DNA from: Candidatus Moraniibacteriota bacterium
GTDB taxonomy: Bacteria; Patescibacteriota; Minisyncoccia; Moranbacterales; UBA1568
Direction of reading: 5' to 3'
Assembly: GCA_028711705.1 (NCBI GenBank)
Contig: JAQTRS010000001.1
Span: forward strand, 30,581-94,580
Length of the DNA stretch: 64,000 bases
The notes beneath the pieces were generated by a model, which saw only the letters and a list, made by a program, of their open reading frames with translations, did no database searches and was not told where the DNA came from. Both the position numbers and the translations under genes were made by a program. Position 1 is the first letter of the stretch. Every line of letters starts with the position of its first letter. Below, in pieces: positions 934 to 15,024 of the stretch.

Positions 934-1494
934 ATGAAAAAAGAAATCAAAACACATAGCGGAACCATCCCGTACACGATGAAATCGGTGCGGTGGTCCA
1001 AGTCGGTGCGGCTTATCGTGCATGGCGATGGGTCGCTCGTTTTGACGAAGCCGTTGTGGGTGAGCGTCAAAAGAGCGGAAGGCTTTCTTTCGGATAAGAT
1101 TGAGTGGATTATCGAGAAGGTGCGGCAGGCGAAAGAGAATCATCCGGCTCATTTGGCACGCCAGGGGACCAAGGAGGAATATGCGAGGCTCAAGAAGCAG
1201 GCGCTCCAATTCGTGACCGAGCGGGTACGTAGTATCAACCAGGCGCATTATGGGTTCGACTATGCCAAAGTTTCGGTGCGGAATCAGAAGACGAGATGGG
1301 GGAGTTGCTCCAAGGATGGCAATCTGAGCTTCAATTACCGCATCGTCCTCCTCCCGCCTCACTGCGCGGATTACCTCATCGCCCACGAACTCTGCCACCT
1401 CAAGCAATTCAACCACTCGGACAAGTTCTGGAATCTCGTATCCAAGGCCTGCCCCGATCACCGAAAGGTGAGAAGGGAGATGCGGGGGTTGTAG
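934..1494 (+). CDS. YgjP-like zinc metallopeptidase (DUF45/WLM, M48 family), a gene type commonly found inside type I RM loci.
   Basis: HELCHL zinc-binding motif in the C-terminal half. Size ~186 aa. Lies directly upstream of hsdM. An alternative GTG start is at 922. Confidence 0.7.
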   Translation: MKKEIKTHSGTIPYTMKSVRWSKSVRLIVHGDGSLVLTKPLWVSVKRAEGFLSDKIEWIIEKVRQAKENHPAHLARQGTKEEYARLKKQALQFVTERVRSINQAHYGFDYAKVSVRNQKTRWGSCSKDGNLSFNYRIVLLPPHCADYLIAHELCHLKQFNHSDKFWNLVSKACPDHRKVRREMRGL

Positions 1495-1657
1495 ATCAAT
1501 TTTTTTTACCTTACATAAAGAGAATTCCTGATAGAGTATCTATTTGGGAATTTTTTTATCAAACTACAAAGAAAATATAAAAAATGCGGGATTTACCCCT
1601 TGTAAAGCCAAGAATTTAGGAGTAGACTAAAGAAAATCAGTAAATTTCCATTCTGCT

Positions 1658-3202
1658 ATGGCAAAAAACAATACTCAGAAATCAGAATCGTTTGAAAAGA
1701 TACTTTTCAGATCGGCGGATAAGTTGAGAAAGAATATGGATGCAGCCGAGTATAAGCATATTGTACTTGGTCTTATTTTTCTCAAATATATCTCTGATTC
1801 TTTTGAGGAGTTGTACGAAAAAATAAAGTTGGGAGAAGGGGATTTTGCAGGAGCAAATCCTGAGGATGCGGACGAGTATCGCGCGGAGAATGTTTTCTTT
1901 GTTCCGCAGATTGCGCGATGGACATTTCTTCATACAAGAGCAAAGCAACCGACTATTGGCAAGGATCTTGATAATGCGATGGAAGCTATTGAAAAAGAAA
2001 ATCCAACACTCAAAGGAATTCTTCCGAAAGTATATGCTAGACCAAACCTTGATAAAACTGCACTTGGTGGACTTATCGACCTTGTGGGAAATATCGCCAT
2101 TGGAACAGAAGCAGCAAAAAGCAAAGATTTACTCGGAAGAGTATATGAGTATTTCCTCGGAGAATTTGCTAATGCCGAAGGAAAGAAGGGTGGCCAATTC
2201 TACACGCCAAAATCAATTGTTCGATTGATGGTAGAAATGGTCGAACCACACAATGGCCGAGTATATGATCCTGCCTGCGGAAGCGGCGGGATGTTTATTA
2301 TGAGTGAGAAATTTGTTCAAAGTCATCAGGGAAGAGTGGATGATATTTCCATCTATGGTCAAGAATCCAATCAGACAACATATCGTCTTTGTCGGATGAA
2401 TCTTGCTATCCGTGGTATTGATGGATCGCAAGTAAGATGGAATACTGAAGGATCCTTTCTTAACGATGTTCACAAAGACCTTAAAGCAGACTATATCCTT
2501 GCGAACCCCCCTTTTAACGATAGCGATTGGTCAGGACAGCTCCTTGTTAATGATCCTCGCTGGCAATATGGTACTCCACCAGCTGGCAACGCCAATTTTG
2601 CATGGCTTCAGCATATGTTGTATCATCTTTCTCCAAAAGGTGTGATGGCATGCGTACTTGCAAACGGATCACTTTCAAGTCAGACAAGCGGGGAAGGCGA
2701 AATTCGAAAATCACTTATCGAGCATGATGTTGTGGATTGTATCGTCGCACTTCCAAAGCAGCTTTTCTACAATACCGGTATCCCAGCGTGTATTTGGTTT
2801 CTTTCTCGAAAGCGTACGGGTAATGGCGATCGAAAGCGGACTGGAGAAATACTTTTTATCGACGCAAGCGAAGTTGGATATATGGCCGATCGCACTCACA
2901 AAGAATTTAGTGAGGATGATATGGCTATGATTGCCAATACGTATCACGAGTGGCGCAAAGAGGATGGGAAATATGAAGATAAAAAAGGTTTCTGTAAATC
3001 CGCTACGTTGGAAGAAATAGTCAAACATAATTTTGTCCTTACACCGGGGCGCTATGTGGGTATTCCAGATGAGATAGATGACGGAATCCCATTTGAAACC
3101 AAAATTTCCGCCCTTACCGCAACTCTCAAAAACCAGATGACACAGGAGGAAAAGTTGAATGCAGAGATACGAAAGCAGCTAGGGAAAATTAACATATTCT
3201 GA
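1658..3202 (+). CDS. hsdM: Type I restriction-modification system methyltransferase subunit HsdM (N6-adenine)
   Basis: N-terminal HsdM_N-like [25 protein letters not shown]. AdoMet motif DPACGSGG. Catalytic NPPFN motif. Confidence 0.92.
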
Positions 3203-3322
3203 TACCCCCCAACAAGAAATCATCACGGATAGTGCTTTAAATGAGCCATATTTACGACTATTTACATCTCTTGTATAGTATAGTATACTAGAAACATACA
3301 TTTGTAGATAAGTATACTCTCT

Positions 3323-4747
3323 ATGAACCAAGAACTCATTCATTATCTTCAACAGCAACTTCGAACAACTGATGAACGGTTGAAACGCTTTACGCATAGT
3401 TCAGATGGAAAAAAACATCCGAGCCGTTTTATGTTTGTGAAATTGAAACAATACATCGATGATTTTCTTGAAAAAAAATCCGAAAATAAAATGATTATCA
3501 TTCCAGGATTTCGAGGTGTTGGTAAAACGACATTGACAGCTCAAATGTGCGAGCACTACCAACGTCGCATAAAACACACCCTCTTTATTTCGATTGAGGA
3601 TGCAAAGAATCTTTTTGATGTCGGTATTGCTGAGATTATGAATGCTTACGAAAGTATTCTTGGGAAGGATCTTGAAAGTATTGATTATCCAATCCTTATT
3701 TTCCTCGATGAAGTTCAAACTGATCCAAAGTGGGCAATTACACTTAAATCACTTTTCGAAAAAACGACAAATGTGTTTTTTTGCTGCACCGGTTCATCTG
3801 CAGTAACGCTTCAAACAACAAGCAATCTTGCTCGTCGAGCTGTTTTTGAACGGATGCCGCCTATGTGTTTCACTGAGTACGAAATGGTGAAGAATAATAT
3901 TTTTCCGATAACTAAATTGAAAGATTTTATTCGACAGGCAGTGTATTTTTCTCAGGATGCCGATGCAGTTTATGCAAGTCTCCTTCGTATTCAGCCATCG
4001 GTCAATCAGTATTGGTCGAAAGTAAATCGAAATGATATTCGTCCTTATTTGGCATACGGCGCCTTACCCTTTTCTCTTATAATGCCAAATGAAACGGTAG
4101 TCTATGAATCGATCTCGTTGCTTTTGGATAAGATTATCAAATCAGATCTTTCGACGATCGGTAATTTCGATATTGAGACATTGGGAGCGGTCAAGCGAAT
4201 TCTCTTTGCTATTGCTGAGAATGACACAACGAGCCTCAAAACTCTCGAAGATCGTTTTGGCCTGAGTCGTCTCACTATTGCTAATATCTTTGATGCTTTA
4301 GAGAAAGCGGAATTACTTATCAAAATCCCAGCTTACGGATCAAATATGACTATTGCTAAAAAGGCGAATAAATACCTCTTTATGGCCCCGGCTATCCGAA
4401 TGTCTTTCTTTTATCTTACTGGTCTTGAGAGCACTTACCTTGTCAGGCAAGGAAAACTGCTTGAGGATTCTGTTGGCTCGCATCTCTATCGAGAATTTAT
4501 TCTCAGGGGCCAGGGCGCTATTCGTTATGATAGCGCTCAAGGGGGAGCAGATTTCATATTGCAGATTCAAAATAATCGACAAATCATCATTGAAGTTGGA
4601 ATGGGAAAGAAGGATAGAAAGCAAGTTGCTAACAGTGCGAAGAAAATCAATGCCGTTTACAATATTGTTTTTTCAGAATCAGAACTCAGGATTGATCATG
4701 ATTTGAAAACAGTATTTGTACCGTTAGATTATTATTTTTTGATGTAA
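3323..4747 (+). CDS. AAA+ ATPase of the AAA_14/DUF4143 (COG1373-like) type, nested between hsdM and hsdS.
   Basis: Walker A PGFRGVGKTT. Walker B ILIFLDEVQ. ~470 aa architecture typical of the AAA+DUF4143 family. Confidence 0.65.
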   Translation: MNQELIHYLQQQLRTTDERLKRFTHSSDGKKHPSRFMFVKLKQYIDDFLEKKSENKMIIIPGFRGVGKTTLTAQMCEHYQRRIKHTLFISIEDAKNLFDVGIAEIMNAYESILGKDLESIDYPILIFLDEVQTDPKWAITLKSLFEKTTNVFFCCTGSSAVTLQTTSNLARRAVFERMPPMCFTEYEMVKNNIFPITKLKDFIRQAVYFSQDADAVYASLLRIQPSVNQYWSKVNRNDIRPYLAYGALPFSLIMPNETVVYESISLLLDKIIKSDLSTIGNFDIETLGAVKRILFAIAENDTTSLKTLEDRFGLSRLTIANIFDALEKAELLIKIPAYGSNMTIAKKANKYLFMAPAIRMSFFYLTGLESTYLVRQGKLLEDSVGSHLYREFILRGQGAIRYDSAQGGADFILQIQNNRQIIIEVGMGKKDRKQVANSAKKINAVYNIVFSESELRIDHDLKTVFVPLDYYFLM

Positions 4748-4780
4748 GGAAAGAATTTTTAGTTTTTATGATTTTTTATT

Positions 4781-5311
4781 ATGGGACCGAAAGATATAAG
4801 AAAGAAAATTTTAGAGATGTTGTATTCTCAGAGATCAGGGTTTATGGTAAAAACTGATGATTTAATAAATAGCTTTAAACCTAAACTTGATGACCCAATT
4901 TTGCATCAAGAAATAGAGTATCTTAAAGGAAAGGGTTTTCTTGAGACCCAAGCTGAATTCATGGGGAGAGAGTATCTTTATTTTGCTGGCTTAAAAATTA
5001 CTCCTATTGGAATTGATCTTGTTGAAAATCCAGAAGAATTTGGAAAATTATTTAACGTACATATAAATAATTTTGGAAATATCTCACAAAGCAACGTTGT
5101 AGCTAGCTCTTCCAATATTAATCAAAGTATAAATGTTCAAACCAATGATATCTCTCCTGAAATTTTAGAATTGTTACAGCAGTTAAAAAAAGCGATTGAG
5201 GATGGCGACATTGAGAAGAAGGATTCTCTGCTACAGAAGCTGAGGAGCGGTGCTGAAAATGTATTTTGGAACCTCGTAGCAAGTGGTATTTATACGGTGA
5301 TTCAAAAATAA
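4781..5311 (+). CDS. Hypothetical protein with a probable N-terminal winged-helix DNA-binding domain, nested in the RM locus.
   Basis: The ORF starts 34 nt after the ATPase stop. The N-terminal KKILEMLYSQRSGFMVKTDDLINSF...EIEYLKGKGFLET resembles PadR/wHTH folds. The C-terminal half is Asn/Ser-rich and helical. Confidence 0.45.
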   Translation: MGPKDIRKKILEMLYSQRSGFMVKTDDLINSFKPKLDDPILHQEIEYLKGKGFLETQAEFMGREYLYFAGLKITPIGIDLVENPEEFGKLFNVHINNFGNISQSNVVASSSNINQSINVQTNDISPEILELLQQLKKAIEDGDIEKKDSLLQKLRSGAENVFWNLVASGIYTVIQK

Positions 5312-5331
5312 AGTGGGGTAAATTTACACAT

Positions 5332-5745
5332 ATGTTAAAAGTAAAGTACAAAGAAAGGCCAACGAAGGAGGCTATAGAAGGATATTGCAGAATGATTGAG
5401 GGTCTTTTGTCCGTTCATAAGTTGAAATTAGAAGTTGATATCTGGGATGGTCCTATGATTATCAAATCATATCAGGGCAATCAACATATAGAGGATGCAT
5501 ATGTTTGGATACGAGGTATTGCTGTTAAGATGCCTGGAAGGAAAGTTTTTTCTATATATCCAGCGCCAAGAGGCGGATTAGATGAAACCGTTTCAGATAA
5601 GGAAATATGGGATGATGCCTATATTATTCAAGATGAAATTTATCAGAAGTTGAATAGATTTTCTTATGTAGGAAATATGTCTGATCCATATTGGGAATTA
5701 TGGGATAACCTCCCCAAGGCGGTTAAGAAATTGAAAGGGGAATAA
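5332..5745 (+). CDS. Hypothetical protein (~137 aa), nested in the RM locus.
   Basis: ORF with an ATG 21 nt after the upstream stop, same strand, very AT-rich. No recognisable motif. Confidence 0.4.
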   Translation: MLKVKYKERPTKEAIEGYCRMIEGLLSVHKLKLEVDIWDGPMIIKSYQGNQHIEDAYVWIRGIAVKMPGRKVFSIYPAPRGGLDETVSDKEIWDDAYIIQDEIYQKLNRFSYVGNMSDPYWELWDNLPKAVKKLKGE

Positions 5746-5761
5746 ATTTTACAAGAAAGTT

Positions 5762-6406
5762 ATGTTTTCTAGCGAGATATTTGAGGTAATAAATCATGGG
5801 AGCGAAGAGGTAAACATCGAGTATAAAGATTCGATGGATTGGTCTTTGGATGAAACGAGATGGAAAATTATTCAGGCTGTTTTAGCGATGTCTAACACAA
5901 AAGATGGCGGATACATCGTTATTGGTGTAGAGGAAAGAGAAAAAGTTTTTTATGCAAAGGGTATGTCTGAGGAGTATTTTAAATCATTTAATCATGACCA
6001 TCTCTCAAATGTGTTAAGCGAATACTGTGATCCAAATATTCAGTTTCGCGTATTGTCAGATGTAGCGGAAATAGATGATGAGAAAAGGCTATTTATTGTG
6101 ATTGAGGTCTCGGAATCAATGCAACCTGTCATATGTAAAAAATTAGCACTACGGAGCAAAAAAGAAAAAGCGTTTCCAGAAAATATTGCATTAAGGAAAA
6201 ATGCTATTTACATACGTTCAAAAACACCTATTGAATCTCGCGAAATCGCATCAGCACATGAATGGCGCGAATTTATCGAGCGAATTGTTGAGAAAAATCG
6301 TGCAGAATTGATCAAAAGAATGCCTTGTTCCAGGTTTAAGTCAGAGATCTTAGTATCTGACAGTGATAAATTTAATAAGGATCAGGAAAGAGATAAGATT
6401 ATATAA
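5762..6406 (+). CDS. AlbA_2 / Schlafen-like putative DNA-binding domain protein, nested in the RM locus.
   Basis: EYKDSMDWSLDETRWKIIQAVLAMSNTKDGGYIVIGVEE matches the AlbA_2 (divergent Schlafen core) signature E.K...AfaNt.GG.l.iGV. Confidence 0.5.
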   Translation: MFSSEIFEVINHGSEEVNIEYKDSMDWSLDETRWKIIQAVLAMSNTKDGGYIVIGVEEREKVFYAKGMSEEYFKSFNHDHLSNVLSEYCDPNIQFRVLSDVAEIDDEKRLFIVIEVSESMQPVICKKLALRSKKEKAFPENIALRKNAIYIRSKTPIESREIASAHEWREFIERIVEKNRAELIKRMPCSRFKSEILVSDSDKFNKDQERDKII

Positions 6407-6411
6407 AACAT

Positions 6412-7146
6412 ATGTCAGATACTGATAAATTGTTGGCTAAGATTAAGTCACGCGGCCATTGGAAGGTGGTTATACGACCAACCGAGTATTCGGAGAATCT
6501 TATTCCATCCTTAGAAGATTGCAAAAGATTAATAGAGGAGAGTAGTGTTAGTCTAAGAGGGTGGGATTACCCTTATATTGATAGACATGGTAATGTGGGA
6601 AATGCAAGTGCAAATAGTGTTCATTCAATGTGTGATTGGGATGACATGTCATTTTTTGAATACTGGAGATTCTATAAAACGGGACAATTTGTTCATTATT
6701 TTTCAATGAGGGAAGATTGGGAAATTGATGAAAATAAAAAAGTAGAAATTCAAAGAAACCTTCGTACGAAATCCGATAAGTTTCTTGGTATTCTATCGAC
6801 ACTTTATTCAATAACGGAAATTTTTGAGTTCGGTTCGAGATTGTTTACAAAGTTAGAGCTTGTCAAGGGTGTTGAAATTATAATTGAATTACATGGAGTT
6901 AATGGAAGAACCTTATTTTTCTGGGATTCTTTCATGCGTATTCTCTATAAGGATTACACGTGCGTATATACTGATGACCTGGCTAAAATTTCACTGACAA
7001 TACCGCGAGAGGATTTAATAAGAAATTCGACAGACCTTGCGCTCCGAGAGTCAATTAAACTTTTCAGAGAAGCTTTCAATTGGAGTGGGGCTAACGAAGG
7101 TATTTTCAGGGAAGATCAGAAAAAGCTATTGGAACGTCGTTTGTAA
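6412..7146 (+). CDS. Hypothetical protein (244 aa), nested in the RM locus. It is possibly the functional partner of the preceding AlbA_2 protein.
   Basis: ORF starts 6 nt after the AlbA_2 gene stop. Trp/Phe-rich. No recognisable motif. Confidence 0.45.
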   Translation: MSDTDKLLAKIKSRGHWKVVIRPTEYSENLIPSLEDCKRLIEESSVSLRGWDYPYIDRHGNVGNASANSVHSMCDWDDMSFFEYWRFYKTGQFVHYFSMREDWEIDENKKVEIQRNLRTKSDKFLGILSTLYSITEIFEFGSRLFTKLELVKGVEIIIELHGVNGRTLFFWDSFMRILYKDYTCVYTDDLAKISLTIPREDLIRNSTDLALRESIKLFREAFNWSGANEGIFREDQKKLLERRL

Positions 7147-7169
7147 TTGAAAGTAAAATATTTCTCAGT

Positions 7170-8408
7170 ATGAAAAATTGGAAAGAAACAACTTTAGGAG
7201 AGGTGACTGATCTTATTATTGACCATAGGGGACTGACTCCAAAAAAGATTGGAGGAGATTGGTCTGATATTGGGTATCGGGCGATTTCTGCAAAGTCTAT
7301 TAAAAATGGTCAGCTTGTAAATGAGGAACAAATGAATATTCTTCCGGAAAACCTCTATAAAAAGTGGATGAAGGAGGAAATTCAATACGGCGATATTTTT
7401 CTGACTTCTGAGGCACCTCTGGGTGAACATATCGTTTGGAAGTCTGAGGAGAAGTTGGTATTGAGTCAAAGAATTTTTGGCATAAGAACCAAGAAAGAAA
7501 AACTTGATCCGTTTTTCTTTAATTATTTTATCGATAGCAAATTTTACCAACACGAACTAAAGAGCAAGGAATCCGGGTCTACTGTTACGGGCATAAAACA
7601 ATCGGAATTATTAAAGACTAGGGTTATTCTTCCACCTCTCGAAGAGCAGAAAGAAATTGCGGGGGTTTTGGGGAGTTTGGATGATAAGATCGAGCTTTTG
7701 CGAGAGGAGAACAAAACCTTGGAAGCAACCGCACAGACCATTTTCAAAGAATGGTTCGTCAATTTCAATTTCCCAAATATTGAAGGAAAACCCTACAAAT
7801 CATCCGGCGGAAAAATGATCAACTCCGAACTCGGCTTGATCCCAGATGGGTGGAGAGTTGGGAGACTATCAGAGATTGCGAATTTCCTGAATGGCTTGGC
7901 ATTACAGAAGTTTCCGCCAGAGAGTACCACTGAGTATTTACCTGTTATTAAAATTAAAGAACTGAATTCTGGAATTTCTAACCAAACCGATAAAGCAAGC
8001 GCGAAACTGGATAAGAAATATATTGTTGAGGATGGAGATATCTTATTTTCATGGTCAGGGAGCCTCATCGTAGATATTTGGAAATACGGAAGAGGGGCAT
8101 TGAATCAGCATTTGTTTAAGGTAGCATCTGACCAGTACCCAAAGTGGTTTTATTTATATTGGACGAAAGAGCATTTGGCGAACTTTCAGCAAATAGCAAC
8201 TGCAAAGGCCGTTACAATGGGGCATATTCAGAGACATCATTTGGATGATGCGCTTGTCACGATACCAATTGAAGAGTTTATGAAGATATCAGATGATGTA
8301 TTTGCACCGATGCTTGAAAAAATTATCAATAATAATTCTGAGATCCAGACTCTCTCAACTCTTCGCGATACTCTTTTACCAAAGTTGATGAGTGTTAATA
8401 ATAAGTAA
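7170..8408 (+). CDS. hsdS: Type I restriction-modification system specificity subunit HsdS (two target-recognition domains)
   Basis: Conserved central and C-terminal HsdS helices (LPPLEEQKEIAGVLGSLDDKIELLREENKTLEATAQTIFKEWF and LSTLRDTLLPKLMSV). ~410 aa. Confidence 0.88.
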   Translation: MKNWKETTLGEVTDLIIDHRGLTPKKIGGDWSDIGYRAISAKSIKNGQLVNEEQMNILPENLYKKWMKEEIQYGDIFLTSEAPLGEHIVWKSEEKLVLSQRIFGIRTKKEKLDPFFFNYFIDSKFYQHELKSKESGSTVTGIKQSELLKTRVILPPLEEQKEIAGVLGSLDDKIELLREENKTLEATAQTIFKEWFVNFNFPNIEGKPYKSSGGKMINSELGLIPDGWRVGRLSEIANFLNGLALQKFPPESTTEYLPVIKIKELNSGISNQTDKASAKLDKKYIVEDGDILFSWSGSLIVDIWKYGRGALNQHLFKVASDQYPKWFYLYWTKEHLANFQQIATAKAVTMGHIQRHHLDDALVTIPIEEFMKISDDVFAPMLEKIINNNSEIQTLSTLRDTLLPKLMSVNNK

Positions 8409-8415
8409 TTTATGT

Positions 8416-9393
8416 ATGGTGACAAGGCAACGAAAACTGGGATCAGTAAAAAATGAATTGATTCGAAAATCTATTGAGTCAATGCTTTCTGCTGTTCAAA
8501 TATTTAATAATCCCAGTATCCAATTTAAATCTGAATCTTTTATAGTTCTCTCTGTGATTGCATGGACATACCTCTTACATGCTCACTACAGAGAACAAAA
8601 AATCGAATACCGGTATTTTGAACAGAAAGGGAAGAGAAGAAAGTTTGATACAACGAAGAATGGAGCATATAAATATTGGGAACTTGAAAGATGTTTAAAT
8701 GATATTAAATCACCTATAGACAAAGTTACATCAAATAATTTAAAGTTTTTGATTGGGTTAAGACATGAGATAGAACATCAAATGACAACTAAAATTGATG
8801 ATTTATTGAGTGCTAGATTTCAAGCATGTTGTTTGAATTATAATAGTTACCTAAAGAAATTATTTCCAAAACAGGATGGGATTGAAAAGTATTTGTCTTT
8901 TAGTCTTCAGTTCTCATCTTTGAATGAAAAACAGATTGACCAATTGGTTGATTATGAAGATTTACCCCAAAACATTTCAATTTATATACAACAATTTGAT
9001 CAAGAACTACCGGATGAAGAATTTAATGATAGCAGATTTTCTTATAGGGTTTTATTTGTACCGAAAACAGCAAACAGAAAAGGTCAGGCGGACAAGGTTA
9101 TTGAATTTATTCCAGCTGATTCAGAAGTTGCCAAGGGAATGAATAAAGAATATGTATTAGTGAAAGAGAAAGAGAAAATGAAATATTCACCTAGTGAAAT
9201 TTGGAAGAAAATACAAAAAGACGGTTTTAAAAAATTTGGCGCATACCAACACACTCAACTGTGGCGGACTGAAAACGCAAAAGACCCCTCAAAGGGATTT
9301 GGTACTTTCGTTGTAAAAACTTGGTATTGGTATGATTCCTGGCTTGATTTTGTAAAAAAACATTGTGAGGAGAATAAATCAGAATATACCTAG
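8416..9393 (+). CDS. Hypothetical protein carrying an R-x4-H (RHEIEH) motif, a possible HEPN/Abi-like domain, nested between hsdS and hsdR.
   Basis: ATG at 8416 (MVTRQRK) overlaps the hsdS stop region. The motif GLRHEIEHQ is flanked by predicted helices. Confidence 0.5.
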   Translation: MVTRQRKLGSVKNELIRKSIESMLSAVQIFNNPSIQFKSESFIVLSVIAWTYLLHAHYREQKIEYRYFEQKGKRRKFDTTKNGAYKYWELERCLNDIKSPIDKVTSNNLKFLIGLRHEIEHQMTTKIDDLLSARFQACCLNYNSYLKKLFPKQDGIEKYLSFSLQFSSLNEKQIDQLVDYEDLPQNISIYIQQFDQELPDEEFNDSRFSYRVLFVPKTANRKGQADKVIEFIPADSEVAKGMNKEYVLVKEKEKMKYSPSEIWKKIQKDGFKKFGAYQHTQLWRTENAKDPSKGFGTFVVKTWYWYDSWLDFVKKHCEENKSEYT

Positions 9394-9436
9394 TTTTATG
9401 TGAATGAATACTCGCTCTAAGGATTGATATTAACGG

Positions 9437-10426
9437 ATGATTTTTATGAATGAAAATAGAGAATTTATAGGATATCTTAAGTATTCTGGAAAGTCTGTAG
9501 AGGGTGGATTTTTGGATGCTAGAAAATCTGCAGAAGCTCTACTTGGTTTTGATGAGGTGTTGCGATATTTTATTTCAGTAGGAAATCCAGATTTTAGAAA
9601 TGTTAATTATGAAATACCGGTAAGGGTTAAGAAGGGGTCATGGGGTATTTGGATTCCAATTGGAATAGCTCTCACTCAGTATTTAAACACGATTGCAAAA
9701 AAAGCTGGATCAGATGGTTTTTTTGAGACAGGACCATCAAAGGATATAGAGAAGATGTTTCGAGGTGCAGTTATTGCTGCACAATGGGTAATGAGAATTG
9801 GGATACATGTTGGCGACTTTGCAAAGAAAGAATTCGAGAAAACCGTGAGGATAAAACAAGTAGGTGATGATATAATTATTGGTGTACCAAATGCTGAAGG
9901 TAAAATATTGGATGTGCCAAAAAAATACTTTGATATATATGTTAAATGTCCCGAGAAGCTTTTTTCAAAGAATGCAAACCTTATAGAACAAGATCGGTAT
10001 TTAGAGATGGGCGTGTTTCAAAATAGTGAGGAAGAAAAGGTCCTCGTAACTGAAAAAGAGAAGAATATTTTTTATAAAAAAGATGATTCTGATAAGGATA
10101 TTTTGTTCCCGGAATTAGAACATGGTCAATTTGTTGAATTAGATGGCGAAATTACTAGAGCAACAGAGAGTACAAATACAATTGGATTTAGGTATAAAGA
10201 TCATACCTTGGTTTGTACTCCAGATAAAGATATAGCGATAGCGATATTCAAAAATAAAATGATTTCACAACAAAAGGAACATTTATTCCCCAGAGTAAAA
10301 ATTCGAGGCATTGTATCTAGAGTAGATAAAGATGGTTTCTTTAAAGAGAGAAGGCCCCAAATCATATTTTATGATATTGAATCGTTGGAGGTGGAAGCAA
10401 ATAATCGAAAGATGACACTTTTTTAA
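9437..10426 (+). CDS. Hypothetical protein (~326 aa), nested between hsdS and hsdR.
   Basis: ORF on the operon strand, AT-rich. An alternative start is at 9446. It ends 10 nt before hsdR. Confidence 0.45.
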   Translation: MIFMNENREFIGYLKYSGKSVEGGFLDARKSAEALLGFDEVLRYFISVGNPDFRNVNYEIPVRVKKGSWGIWIPIGIALTQYLNTIAKKAGSDGFFETGPSKDIEKMFRGAVIAAQWVMRIGIHVGDFAKKEFEKTVRIKQVGDDIIIGVPNAEGKILDVPKKYFDIYVKCPEKLFSKNANLIEQDRYLEMGVFQNSEEEKVLVTEKEKNIFYKKDDSDKDILFPELEHGQFVELDGEITRATESTNTIGFRYKDHTLVCTPDKDIAIAIFKNKMISQQKEHLFPRVKIRGIVSRVDKDGFFKERRPQIIFYDIESLEVEANNRKMTLF

Positions 10427-10435
10427 AGTTAAATT

Positions 10436-13400
10436 ATGACCAAAATATTTGAATCAACCATTGAGGAATTTGTAATCGAACTCTTGCAGAATCAAGGGTT
10501 TGAGTATCTATCACCCGAGGATCAAGAGAATGAACGGCCTGATCTGGGTGAAGTGGTATTGAAAGATCGTTTGAAGCGTGCCATCGATGCTATCAATTCG
10601 GGAATTCCGGAGGAAGCCAAGGAACAGGCTTTGAAGTTAGCTCTGAATCTTCCAAGTCAGAATTTGATGGATAATAATGAGATTTTCCATCGGATGCTTA
10701 CGGAAGGAATCGAGGTGGAAGTGATGGGTGTAGATGGTGTGAAAGGTGAGAAGGTTTGGCTTATAGATTTCTTGCATCCTGAGAATAATGAATTCCTTGT
10801 TTGTAATCAGTATACGGTTATTGAAAATGGAGTGAATAAAAGGCCGGATGTTGTGGTATTGGTGAATGGCTTGCCTTTGGTGGTGATAGAACTCAAGAAT
10901 CCTGCAGATGAAAATGCAACAGTGCAAAAAGCATTTACGCAGCTGCAGAATTACAAGAATGCTATTCCGAGCTTGTTTGGATATAATGCGCTTCTGGTGG
11001 CGTCGGACGGATTGGATGCGAAGGTCGGGACGATTTCTTCGGATATGTCGCGTTTTTTGGCGTGGAAGTCTCGTGATGGAGTGAAGGAGGATAGTGTAAC
11101 TGTTCCGCAAATTGAAACATTGGTGCGGGGTATGCTTGCTCAAGAAGTCTTGCTTGATTTGGTCAGGAATTTTATTGTCTTTGAGAAAGATAAAAAAGAA
11201 GATCCGGAAACGGGAATGATTTCAATAGTTACTATTAAGAAAATTGCAGCGTATCATCAATACTATGCAGTCAATAAAGCGATCACCTCGACAATGACTG
11301 CCTCGAGTGAAGAGGGGAATAGAAAAGCTGGTGTGGTATGGCATACGCAAGGATCCGGAAAATCGCTTTCGATGGTTTTCTATACTGGGAAAGTAGTATT
11401 GTCATTGAACAATCCTACGGTGGTAGTGATTACGGATCGAAATGATTTGGATGAGCAATTGTTTGATACATTTGCGAGTTGCGGACAGTTATTGCGACAA
11501 GATCCTGTGCAGGCAAAGAGTCGTGGTGAACTCAAAGATCTTTTGAGGGTTGCTGGCGGAGGGATTGTGTTTACGACGATTCAGAAGTTTTTTCCCGAGG
11601 ATGGATCGGCGGATTTTGATATGCTCTCGGAACGAAAAAATATTATCGTGGTTGCTGATGAAGCGCATCGTAGCCAATATGGATTTGGAGCAAAGACTCG
11701 TGAAAAAGATGGTGAAGTATCTACGAAATATGGATTTGCGAAGTATTTGCGCGACGCTTTGCCTCATGCGTCGTTTATAGGGTTTACGGGGACGCCGATT
11801 GAAAAGGAGGATGCTTCGACACCGGCAGTGTTTGGAAATTATGTGGATGTGTATGATATCGCGCAAGCGGTAGAGGATGGCGCGACGGTGCGCATATACT
11901 ATGAATCACGACTTGCTAAAGTGCATCTTGATGATGAGGAGAAGGCGCGATTGGATGAGGAGGTTTCTTCTATTACAGAAGGGGAAGAAAGTACGGCTGC
12001 CGAAAGAGCGAAAGCGAAGTGGGCACAGCTTGAAGCTATTGTCGGTCATCGGGATCGGTTGAAGGTTATCGCTTCGGATATCGTAGATCATTTTGAAAAG
12101 CGACAAGCAGTGATGGAGGGAAAAGGGATGATCGTTTGTATGAGTCGAAGAATTGCTGTTGAGCTTTATGAAGAGATTGTAAAGATTCGTCCGGATTGGC
12201 ATGATAGTGATTTGAAGAAAGGTGCGATAAAAGTAGTGATGACTTCGTCTTCTTCGGATCCTGAGAATTGGCAACCACATCATACAAGTAAGCAGGCACG
12301 TAAAGCGCTTGGTGATCGACTTAAGGATACGAATGATACTTTGAAGTTGGTGATCGTGCGGGATATGTGGCTTACGGGGTTTGATGCGCCGTGTTTGCAT
12401 ACGATGTATGTCGACAAGCCAATGCGTGGACATAATCTTATGCAGGCGATTGCCCGGGTGAATCGGGTGTTTAAGGATAAGTCTGGTGGTTTGATCGTGG
12501 ATTATATCGGTATTGCCTCAGATCTGAAGTCTGCTCTCGCAACATATACTGCAAGCGGTGGAAAAGGTGCGCCAACACTTGACCAGGAAGAAGCAGTCGC
12601 CGCTTTGCTTGAGAAGTTTGAAATCGTCGAGCAGATGTTCCATGGCTTTGATTATAGGCGATTCTTTTCTGTGGATACGAGAGAGAAATTGACATTAATT
12701 CTTGAAGCTCAGGAGTATGTATTTGGTTTGGATGATGGAAAGAATCGATTTACACGTCAGGTAGGATTGCTCTCGCAAGCCTTTGCTCTGTCGGTGCCGA
12801 ATCTGAAAGCTATGGCAATAAAAGATGAGGTAGGATTTTTTCAGGCAGTGAAGGCTCGTCTGACAAAATTTGAATCAATCGGAACAGGAAAATCGGATCT
12901 TGAAATTGAGACGGCTATTCGACAAATAGTTGATCGTGCTGTGGTATCGGAAGGCGTGATTGATGTGTTTGATGCTGCAGGAATTAAGAAACCGGATATT
13001 TCTATATTGTCGGATGAATTTTTGGAAGAGGTAAAGCATATGGAGCGGAAGAATCTTGCACTGGAGCTTTTGAAAAAGTTGTTGAATGATGAGATCAAGA
13101 TGCGGACGAGAAAGAATTTCATCCAGAGTAGGAAATTGTCCGAGATGCTTGAAAATGCTATCAAGAAATACCAGAACAATCTTTTGACAACAGCGCAGGT
13201 AATTGAAGAATTGATTGGATTGGCAAAGGAAATTCGTGAAGGTGATAAACGAGGAGAAGAACTTGATTTGAGTGAGGACGAGTTAGCGTTCTATGATGCT
13301 TTGGCAAATAATGACAGCGCCCGTGGTATTTTGGGAGACAAACAATTAGCAGTAATTGCAGTTGAGGTTTTCCGAAGCGTGAAAGGTAATGCAACAATAG

Positions 13401-13552
13401 ACTGGAACCTCAAAGAAACAGTACGTGCTCGATTACGTCGGGATGTGAAACGTATTCTTAATCGATATGGGTATCCACCAGATGAACAGTTAGTTGCGAC
13501 AGAGAATGTCTTGAAACAGGCTGAGTTGATGGCGAGTGAATTAGGGGAGTAA
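10436..13552 (+). CDS. hsdR: Type I restriction enzyme endonuclease/translocase subunit HsdR
   Basis: 1038 aa. The N-terminus [24 protein letters not shown] is typical of HsdR. A nuclease motif ([15 protein letters not shown]) is followed by SF2 helicase motifs (GSGKS..., DEAHRSQ). Confidence 0.92.
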
Positions 13553-13859
13553 TTTTTTAAAATATAGGAAGATTAAAATAATGCGTACTTGATAAGGATG
13601 AATGATTTGAATGAAAATGCGTAGAAGCTATATATTCACGCCACAATACCCGTATAACCCTATCAAAACGATTGCAGAAATAAACCCCCTGAAACCCGTT
13701 GACTTTCCCTTGCAGGCATGCTTCAATAGACGTGTTGTTTGCGTCGCGGTTTTTGCGGATCCAGGTCTTGCAGAGACGGGCAACAACCCATCGGCGCCCC
13801 ATAGGTGATGGGGTTCAAAGAATGATTCAGGTGGCTTTTGAATGGCGAGGAGTAGGAAG

Positions 13860-14174
13860 ATGAATAGGCTCGAAGTGGGTAGGGTGATTTCCTTTGATTC
13901 GGCAAAAGGAAAAAGATTCGGGTATCTCCAGCTGGAGAATGGGGAGAAAATGTGGTTTCATGAGGGTGATCACACCGCTCTTGTGACGGTAGATAAAGGG
14001 AGGCATCGTTTTGTGAAGCGGGTCGTCTGCCCGAAACCGATACGGCAGGGGGATGAAATCTGGTTTGTTCGAGGTTTCGGAAGCTCGGGCAAGGAAAGGG
14101 CGAGGTGTTGGTGTTACAGGAAGCGATCCAGACATACGGATTGCCGAACAAGACAAAAACCTACCGTCCATTGA
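13860..14174 (+). CDS. Hypothetical small protein with a cold-shock-domain-like N-terminus and a basic Cys-containing tail.
   Basis: GRVISFDSAKGKRFGYLQLENGEKMWFHEGD resembles the CSD pattern G.V.wF...KGfGFI...G.dvFvH. The alternative start at 13842 adds a basic leader. Confidence 0.3.
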   Translation: MNRLEVGRVISFDSAKGKRFGYLQLENGEKMWFHEGDHTALVTVDKGRHRFVKRVVCPKPIRQGDEIWFVRGFGSSGKERARCWCYRKRSRHTDCRTRQKPTVH

Positions 14175-14313
14175 AGAATATACGGCATGATTGGGAATAA
14201 CATTTTCCCATAGCCAAACAAGGTTTGCCAAGCATGCGTGCGTGGCAGACCTTTTGATTTTTATGAGGCAATCGATAATCCGTATGGCGAAGTTAGTTTT
14301 GAGCTGATATACT

Positions 14314-15024
14314 GTGAGTATGAGGCTTACGTTAAAAGAACAACGTGTCGCTGATGAAGCGAGGCAGTGGGTTAGATCTCATCAGTTGAATATTATCGAT
14401 CATTTCGTCGGAAGTGTCGAGCCGGTGGAATTTCCCGTATCGATTTTTATGGCAGGGTCTCCTGGCGCTGGAAAAACGGAATTTTCGAAACGATTGATCA
14501 AAAGGTTGGGCGGGAATATCGTACGTATCGATGCGGATGATATCCGAGATATGCTGCCGCAGTATCAGGGAAAGAATTCCTATGTTGTCCATGGTGCCGC
14601 AGCTCTTGGCGTTGAGAAAGTGTACGATTTCGTATTGAAAAAGCGATTACACGCCCTGCTCGATGGAACATTTCAAAAATATGAAAAAGCTACCGATAAT
14701 ATACGCCGTTCTCTGAAGTATGAGAGGAGTATCGATATCTTCTACGTGTATCAGGATCCTTTGGTCGCATGGGATTTTACGCAGAAGCGTGAGGTGGTTG
14801 AAGGCAGGAATATTTTGAAAGGAGTGTTCGTTGATGCATTTTTCGCTTCTTATGAGAATGTGAAAAGGGTAAAATTGGAATATGACGAGGCAGTGCGTCT
14901 CAATGTGGTGTTCAAGGATATTTCGAATCACGATGAAGAGATATGGTATAATGTAGATATCGATCAGATTGACTCGTATGTAAAAATAGGGTACACTCGC
15001 ACAGAACTAGAAAAACGCTTATGA
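14314..15024 (+). CDS. Zeta-toxin family P-loop kinase (PezT/zeta-like)
   Basis: Walker A FMAGSPGAGKT is followed by RIDADDIRDMLPQY, the typical zeta_toxin layout. ~235 aa. Confidence 0.65.
   Translation: MSMRLTLKEQRVADEARQWVRSHQLNIIDHFVGSVEPVEFPVSIFMAGSPGAGKTEFSKRLIKRLGGNIVRIDADDIRDMLPQYQGKNSYVVHGAAALGVEKVYDFVLKKRLHALLDGTFQKYEKATDNIRRSLKYERSIDIFYVYQDPLVAWDFTQKREVVEGRNILKGVFVDAFFASYENVKRVKLEYDEAVRLNVVFKDISNHDEEIWYNVDIDQIDSYVKIGYTRTELEKRL

Follow-up and report, generated by a model that had tools for sequence, protein, structure and literature searches.

A textbook case of a second layer of defence housed in a restriction-modification (RM) system is prrC, which lies between hsdS and hsdR in the E. 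coli prr locus encoding the type I RM enzyme EcoprrI. PrrC is an anticodon nuclease with an N-terminal ABC-ATPase domain, and its latency depends on the RM enzyme. Here we describe the same position in a type I RM operon carried by a stretch of 64,000 nucleotides (hereafter the window), which matches a Candidatus Moranbacteria metagenome-assembled genome. Two genes, called A and B below, separate hsdS from hsdR in this operon, and the proteins that they encode are 100% identical to database entries from a 323-kb contig.

Several described proteins are close to gene A. The HEPN superfamily includes the nuclease domain of PrrC (PMC3710099). The DUF3644 (EC042_2821) family was placed in the same superfamily and noted in RM operons, with fusions listed to winged helix-turn-helix, restriction endonuclease and Zn-ribbon domains (Anantharaman et al. 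2013, PMC3710099). HEC-08, a DUF3644 protein embedded in Hma and described as a single protein, protects against phage, and mutation of its motif histidine (H128) abolishes defence (Payne et al. 2024, 10.1101/2024.01.29.577857). In Acinetobacter baumannii, the Ishtar genes (Ist1/Ist2; locus tags ACT42K_09795 and ACT42V_03045) encode DUF3644 or DUF4145 HEPN proteins that clear plasmid RP4, and the authors explicitly call these genes monogenic and stand-alone (10.64898/2026.07.06.735840). PDC-S19 is a candidate single-gene system of phage defence, identified by guilt-by-embedding in BREX and DISARM systems as well as in type I RM (Payne et al. 2024 preprint). Our own searches of literature and supplements found no mention of PDC-S19 or PDC-S42, a second candidate family considered below.

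We conclude, with a probability of roughly three in four, that the hsdS-hsdR slot of the window holds two unrelated, independently acquired single-gene cassettes, transcribed together with the RM genes. Gene A would be a stand-alone HEPN RNase-type effector and gene B a separate protein with an oligonucleotide-binding (OB) fold. The plus strand from 1658 to 13552 forms one tightly packed type I RM operon with candidate passengers between the RM genes. Its RM genes and the two genes of interest are as follows.

1658..3202, plus strand: hsdM, type I methyltransferase subunit, 514 aa (Pfam N6_Mtase, E 7.8e-113; HsdM_N, E 1.4e-22)
7170..8408, plus strand: hsdS, specificity subunit, 412 aa, with two target-recognition domains (Pfam Methylase_S, E 1.6e-30, two stretches)
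8416..9393, plus strand: gene A, 325-aa DUF3644 HEPN protein of the PADLOC PDC-S19 candidate family (Pfam and PADLOC profiles)
8455..9006, plus strand: HEPN (DUF3644) domain of gene A, residues 14-197
8761..8778, plus strand: R116-x4-H121 catalytic-type motif (RHEIEH) of gene A
9007..9390, plus strand: C-terminal region of gene A, residues 198-325
9446..10426, plus strand: gene B, 326 aa, unnamed family, distantly PDC-S42-like
9848..10075, plus strand: middle beta-rich domain of gene B, residues ~135-210 (DSSP of the AlphaFold2 model)
10118..10390, plus strand: C-terminal OB fold of gene B, residues ~225-315
10436..13552, plus strand: hsdR, restriction subunit, 1,038 aa (NCBIfam TIGR00348 hsdR, E 2.6e-187)

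The hsdS stop (8408) and the hsdR start (10436) are separated by 2,027 nucleotides (nt), which are filled by the intact genes A and B with gaps of 7 nt (hsdS-A), 52 nt (A-B) and 9 nt (B-hsdR). A preliminary description of this DNA had given the separation as 2 kb and had pointed to the defence context, and both statements agree with the layout inside a type I RM operon. The starts of the two genes are a different matter. The start of gene A had been described as overlapping the hsdS stop region. However, its open reading frame (ORF) runs from an ATG at 8416 to a stop codon at 9391-9393, and this ATG lies downstream of the hsdS stop codon (8406-8408); an overlap would require the in-frame GTG at 8392 as the start. 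The ATG is favoured, as the 120 listed homologues are about 325 aa in length and begin like the ATG form, and an identical database protein (P0121) has 325 aa. The second protein does have the 326 aa claimed for it, but this length corresponds to a start at 9446 and not at 9437, which gives 329 aa. The identical database entry for gene B (P0001) also has 326 aa.

Genes A and B have a lower G+C content (0.32 and 0.34) than hsdM (0.42), hsdR (0.43) and the whole window (0.48), consistent with imported cassettes. All embedded genes within 3323-10426 fall between 0.32 and 0.36, clearly below the RM genes and the window, and this composition suggests import from elsewhere. Promoter-like and terminator-like sites over 1400-14400 occur at the counts expected from shuffled sequences and represent background.

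Gene A is a HEPN protein of the known DUF3644/EC042_2821/PADLOC PDC-S19 family. The Pfam DUF3644 profile (PF12358) matches residues 14-197 over profile positions 1-182 of 183, with an E-value of 3.7e-58 and 196.6 bits against a cut-off of 27.6. The PADLOC model PDLC04948 (PDC-S19), which has 325 positions, matches residues 1-323 (E 4.7e-165, 546.8 bits), and eight further PDC-S19 models in PADLOC match as well. The full-length match and the embedding in type I RM are alike, no difference from PDC-S19 was detected, and gene A is a member. Among Pfam families DUF3644 alone was reported at E <= 0.1, with neither Abi_2 nor an ATPase domain. An NCBIfam search gave no match, and a PDB sequence search with genes A, B and their family profiles gave no meaningful match. 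The preliminary description was therefore right in its HEPN call, whereas its assignment to the Abi_2/AbiD type does not hold. Gene A shares with Abi_2 and AbiD-AbiF the HEPN superfamily and the kind of motif, but it belongs to a different HEPN family. Its homologues form 5,761 clusters at 90% identity; the best 120 listed share 64-100% identity with gene A, and most have a length of exactly 325 aa.

The motif on which the HEPN call was first based, GLRHEIEHQ, is indeed encoded at residues 114-122 of gene A (nt 8755-8781), with R116 at 8761-8763 and H121 at 8776-8778. R116-x4-H121 is the sole R-x4-6-H in the protein. At least one R-x4-H arises in 24% of shuffles of gene A, and at least one R-x4-6-H in 56%, so that the motif alone proves nothing. 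We regard it as real because of the profile match together with the invariance of R116, E120 and H121 among relatives. The preliminary description had asked whether R and H are conserved. Both residues, together with E120, are invariant in 13 aligned sequences spanning 100-23% identity and in 30 close homologues. The divergent relatives in this alignment are tblastn matches on plasmids with 64, 46, 42, 28, 26, 26, 24 and 26% identity to gene A. N31 and N108 are likewise invariant in the divergent alignment, and H279, W283 and W309 in the C-terminal region are conserved.

The AlphaFold2 model of gene A has a mean predicted local distance difference test (pLDDT) score of 70.9, with mostly 74-90 in the helical bundle and 78-91 over residues 260-325. 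The bundle is modelled as the up-and-down four-helix arrangement of the HEPN superfamily. The last ~70 residues (~257-325) form a confident helix-helix-hairpin-helix module in this model, which may be winged-helix-like. The protein has only four cysteines (93, 138, 139 and 317) and no CxxC. As C317 stands alone in the C-terminal region, the module has no cysteine pairs and thus no zinc ribbons. In one homologue (P0210, 398 aa) the last ~70 residues, corresponding to the C-terminal helix-hairpin module, are tandemly duplicated. This duplication suggests that the module is an independent unit.

These features place gene A relative to the described proteins. It shares with the DUF3644/EC042_2821 family the Pfam match, the conserved R-x4-H and the occurrence in RM operons. 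However, compared with the known fusions, it has no restriction endonuclease or Zn ribbon, only the short C-terminal helix-hairpin module. HEC-08, compared by its description, also has an N-terminal DUF3644 HEPN domain, but it carries C-terminal zinc-ribbon domains, whereas gene A has no CxxC and lies in a type I RM operon. The Ishtar proteins resemble gene A by description in being encoded by a single gene, with an N-terminal HEPN domain, a small C-terminal domain and other defence genes nearby. Their C-terminal alpha/beta domain has 5-7 strands and three helices, compared with about four strands and 4-5 helices in the gene A model, partly at low confidence.

The likeness to PrrC, also a HEPN-superfamily protein encoded between hsdS and hsdR, raises the question of whether gene A may work in the same way. 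The protein would be held latent through physical contact with the type I RM enzyme, to be set free once this enzyme is inhibited by an anti-restriction protein of a phage, making its action dependent on RM. The shared operon position and the HEPN nuclease domain of PrrC are in keeping with such a guard. In addition, seven close homologues of gene A (at least 72% identical) have a readable context, and five of them are found next to hsdS or hsdR, inside or adjoining type I RM operons. However, the N-terminal ABC-ATPase of PrrC and RloC has no counterpart in gene A, which has many homologues outside RM operons. The remaining two of the seven close homologues (L005 and L080, in our numbering of homologous loci) are in other defence islands without type I genes, and more distant ones are found alone on plasmids. 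Furthermore, the tested DUF3644 relatives function as transplanted single genes. We therefore consider a PrrC-like guard unlikely, and favour a stand-alone HEPN effector.

The second protein does not belong to any Pfam family, and NCBIfam gave only a sub-threshold N-terminal match to LAPAL_fam. We identified 229 homologues in a collection clustered at 90% identity and 291 representatives at 50% identity. Near-full-length matches are ~300-350 aa long and share one architecture, with no added domain among the 150 matches listed. The hosts include CPR (candidate phyla radiation) phyla, Lentisphaerota, Verrucomicrobia, Bacteroidota, Burkholderia and Vibrio. The PADLOC family PDC-S42 is weakly matched by 37 of 48 members of the gene B family (best E 1.4e-8). 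Gene B of the window itself reaches only 15.7 bits (E 0.002) against PDC-S42, in a match that covers positions 8-205 of the 302-position model, and this points to a distant relationship and not to membership. Gene B also matches phrog_32975 (E 5.4e-57); despite this match, no copies were found in INPHARED phages or in IMG/VR contigs.

The AlphaFold2 model of gene B (pLDDT 83.8) begins with an alpha/beta region at residues 1-132. The middle domain consists of strands at 135-139, 142-148 and 154-158, a helix at 159-167, and strands at 184-192 and 195-201, as assigned by DSSP. Judged by this topology, the middle domain is possibly a second OB-like barrel. Residues 225-315 form a canonical OB fold, a five-stranded beta-barrel with a helix between strands 3 and 4. 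F248, Y250, K269 and R292 are conserved within this fold, and their conservation is suggestive, though only that, of binding to single-stranded DNA or RNA. Compared with PDC-S42 and with OB-fold proteins such as RPA, PriB and SSB, gene B has an extra N-terminal domain, which had no informative match in whole-protein searches. A search of viral folds in BFVD with gene B gave weak matches only, either uncharacterised or generic OB folds, with TM scores of at most 0.35. Two other ideas were rejected. A PD-(D/E)xK nuclease does not fit the N-terminal domain, whose secondary structure has only two strands, and a membrane effector does not fit the family, in which a 19-residue Kyte-Doolittle mean of 1.6 is reached by only two of 48 members.

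Genes A and B show no sequence relatedness to each other. They are adjacent on the same strand, 52 nt apart, and the preliminary description had proposed that they form a two-gene toxin and partner unit. HEPN toxins often have neutralising partners, as in the HEPN-MNT pairs among the type II/VII toxin-antitoxin systems. On this account A would be the HEPN toxin and B its antitoxin, sensor or partner in a single abortive-infection unit, and an OB-fold protein is plausible as a nucleic-acid sensor. However, the gene neighbourhoods largely refute this proposal, as A and B never co-occur outside the window among the loci examined. A hidden Markov model built from the divergent DUF3644 alignment and searched against all ORFs of the B loci gave no match outside the A loci, leaving ~57 B loci without DUF3644. 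Conversely, none of the 13 distinct A loci contains gene B, either by tblastn or among the listed genes. When the four flanking genes on either side of B at 26 loci were clustered all against all, no partner family was conserved across loci, and the sampled neighbourhoods of gene A homologues have no conserved partner. The only family that recurs across unrelated B loci is that of the N6-adenine methyltransferases.

Near-identical operons further show that each gene is replaced independently of the other. One locus (L047) has the order hsdM-hsdS-A-Abi_C-hsdR, and its HsdM, HsdR and A proteins are 84%, 83% and 82% identical to those of the window. DNA homology to the window ends at 9392 and resumes at 10432, so that exactly B is replaced. 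In another locus (L053) the order is hsdS, an unknown 296-aa gene, B and hsdR, with HsdM 83% and HsdR 77% identical to those of the window; here exactly A is replaced. Gene B also has neither an MNT domain nor any Pfam domain, and neither it nor hsdS has an NTP_transf_2 or Polbeta match in Pfam. A scan of 7000-11000 for a hidden RNA antitoxin or repeats near gene A found no Rfam match, tandem array or meaningful repeat. Finally, PADLOC lists both PDC-S19 and PDC-S42 (the latter only a distant relative of B) as candidates that consist of a single gene; Ishtar is explicitly monogenic and stand-alone, and HEC-08 is a single protein. A two-gene unit is thus highly improbable, and we favour two independent single-gene cassettes.

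The hsdS-hsdR junction holds different genes in different operons. Gene orders include hsdS-Abi_C-A-hsdR (L077), hsdS-B-Abi_C-BroN-hsdR (L001), hsdS-PIN_12-B (L003), hsdS-RT-B-...-hsdR (L033, where RT is a reverse transcriptase) and Shedu-like-B-...-AAA_21-RloB-hsdR (L045). In type I operons the gene directly upstream of B is variable, being hsdS, PIN_12, Shedu SduA_C, a reverse transcriptase or an unknown gene. Abi_C genes recur in the slot: after A (L047, 6982-7605), before A (L077, 4087-4980) and after B (L001, 9057-9677). The occurrence of Abi_C in either order relative to A, or after B, shows that the cassettes are freely permuted.

Gene B is not restricted to type I operons. It lies directly 3' of type IIG Eco57I-like enzymes (L012, L015, L019 and L021), of a type III Res subunit (L010) and of a Type ISP enzyme (L013), and its start is often a few nucleotides from the upstream stop or overlaps it. 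An RM gene is present within two genes of B in 11 of 26 distinct loci; the others are solitary, some among housekeeping genes. The link of gene B to defence is therefore an enrichment and not a rule. Given its position directly downstream of four RM types (I, IIG, III and ISP), the frequent closeness of its start to the upstream stop and an OB fold without a catalytic domain, gene B might be an accessory of restriction enzymes, for example a single-stranded DNA-binding protein that modulates translocation, restriction alleviation or self-protection. However, these RM partners have unrelated mechanisms, and this speaks against B as a specific cofactor. Several type I operons have a further defence gene between B and the RM genes, and over half of the loci have no RM gene nearby. 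An accessory role accordingly appears rather improbable, and we favour a gene that acts on its own.

By analogy with other HEPN defence proteins, gene A most likely acts as a dimer in which the paired R-x4-H motifs form the RNase site. This site would become active only after an invading phage or plasmid has been sensed, perhaps by way of the C-terminal module. Once activated, gene A would be expected to cut RNA, leading to a halt of growth or to a block of invader replication. Gene B would probably act alone, with invader-made single-stranded DNA or RNA as its ligand. We propose, with low confidence, that single-stranded nucleic-acid binding is its most likely activity and autonomous defence its most likely role. 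A broader proposal is more doubtful still: gene B may found a new single-gene defence family of ~325-aa proteins that join a unique N-terminal domain to one or two OB folds. Such a family would travel as a translationally coupled passenger behind type I, IIG, III and ISP genes and recognise single-stranded nucleic acid of the invader, with no recognisable enzymatic effector.

Several points weigh against two autonomous defence cassettes. Gene B has no recognisable catalytic motif or conserved transmembrane segment, which leaves its effector action unexplained, and several B loci are among housekeeping genes (for example in Pontibacter). The gene A model is only moderate overall, with an unreliable linker and unreliable residues 210-253. 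The literature searched contains no tested member of the exact 325-aa PDC-S19 subfamily. In addition, some functional cross-talk between A and B in this one locus is conceivable even though they do not co-occur elsewhere.

The locus is a known kind of RM-embedded cassette slot. The hsdS-hsdR junction is a hot spot of shuffled single-gene defence cassettes, with DUF3644 HEPN, B, Abi_C, Bro-N, Shedu, RT and AAA_21/RloB all seen there, and the window is a clean natural example. Gene A extends a family already flagged as a defence candidate by a single further member, found in a CPR bacterium (Candidatus Moranbacteria), and adds nothing newer. Only gene B holds modest novelty. It is the useful lead, as an unnamed family with no Pfam model and an OB fold that recurs next to several restriction types.

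Other genes found beside B homologues include further candidates. ORFs without a Pfam family lie between hsdS and the B homologue in two loci (L053, 2112-3002, 296 aa; L074, 1611-2855, 414 aa), where they fill the slot that DUF3644 has in the window. In L045, a related type I operon, the Shedu SduA_C-like gene (3-1016, E 4.6e-26) precedes the B homologue, and an AAA_21 ATPase and RloB (2430-4356) are followed by hsdR. On the 1.7-Mb secondary replicon of Vibrio sp. THAF190c (L043, 5998-7672), a B homologue with 34% identity adjoins a gene for a small PLD-family nuclease (NgoFVII-like).

The operon in the window also has an embedded block between hsdM and hsdS, given here for context only, as it lies outside the present finding.

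3323..7146, plus strand: first embedded block, five ORFs
3323-4747, plus strand: AAA_14/DUF4143 ATPase (PADLOC PDC-S01, E 1.5e-27)
5762-6406, plus strand: Schlafen AlbA_2 protein (E 2.6e-11)
4781-5311, 5266-5745 and 6412-7146, plus strand: three ORFs without a family

A weak Pfam Gasdermin match of the ORF at 4781-5311 over residues 97-162 (E 0.0064; 16.4 bits, where the cut-off is 25) is probably noise. This ORF overlaps the ORF at 5266-5745, which has a TTG start, by 46 nt, so that a wrong start is probable for one of them. With this block, the operon holds seven passenger genes in two slots, one between hsdM and hsdS and the other between hsdS and hsdR.

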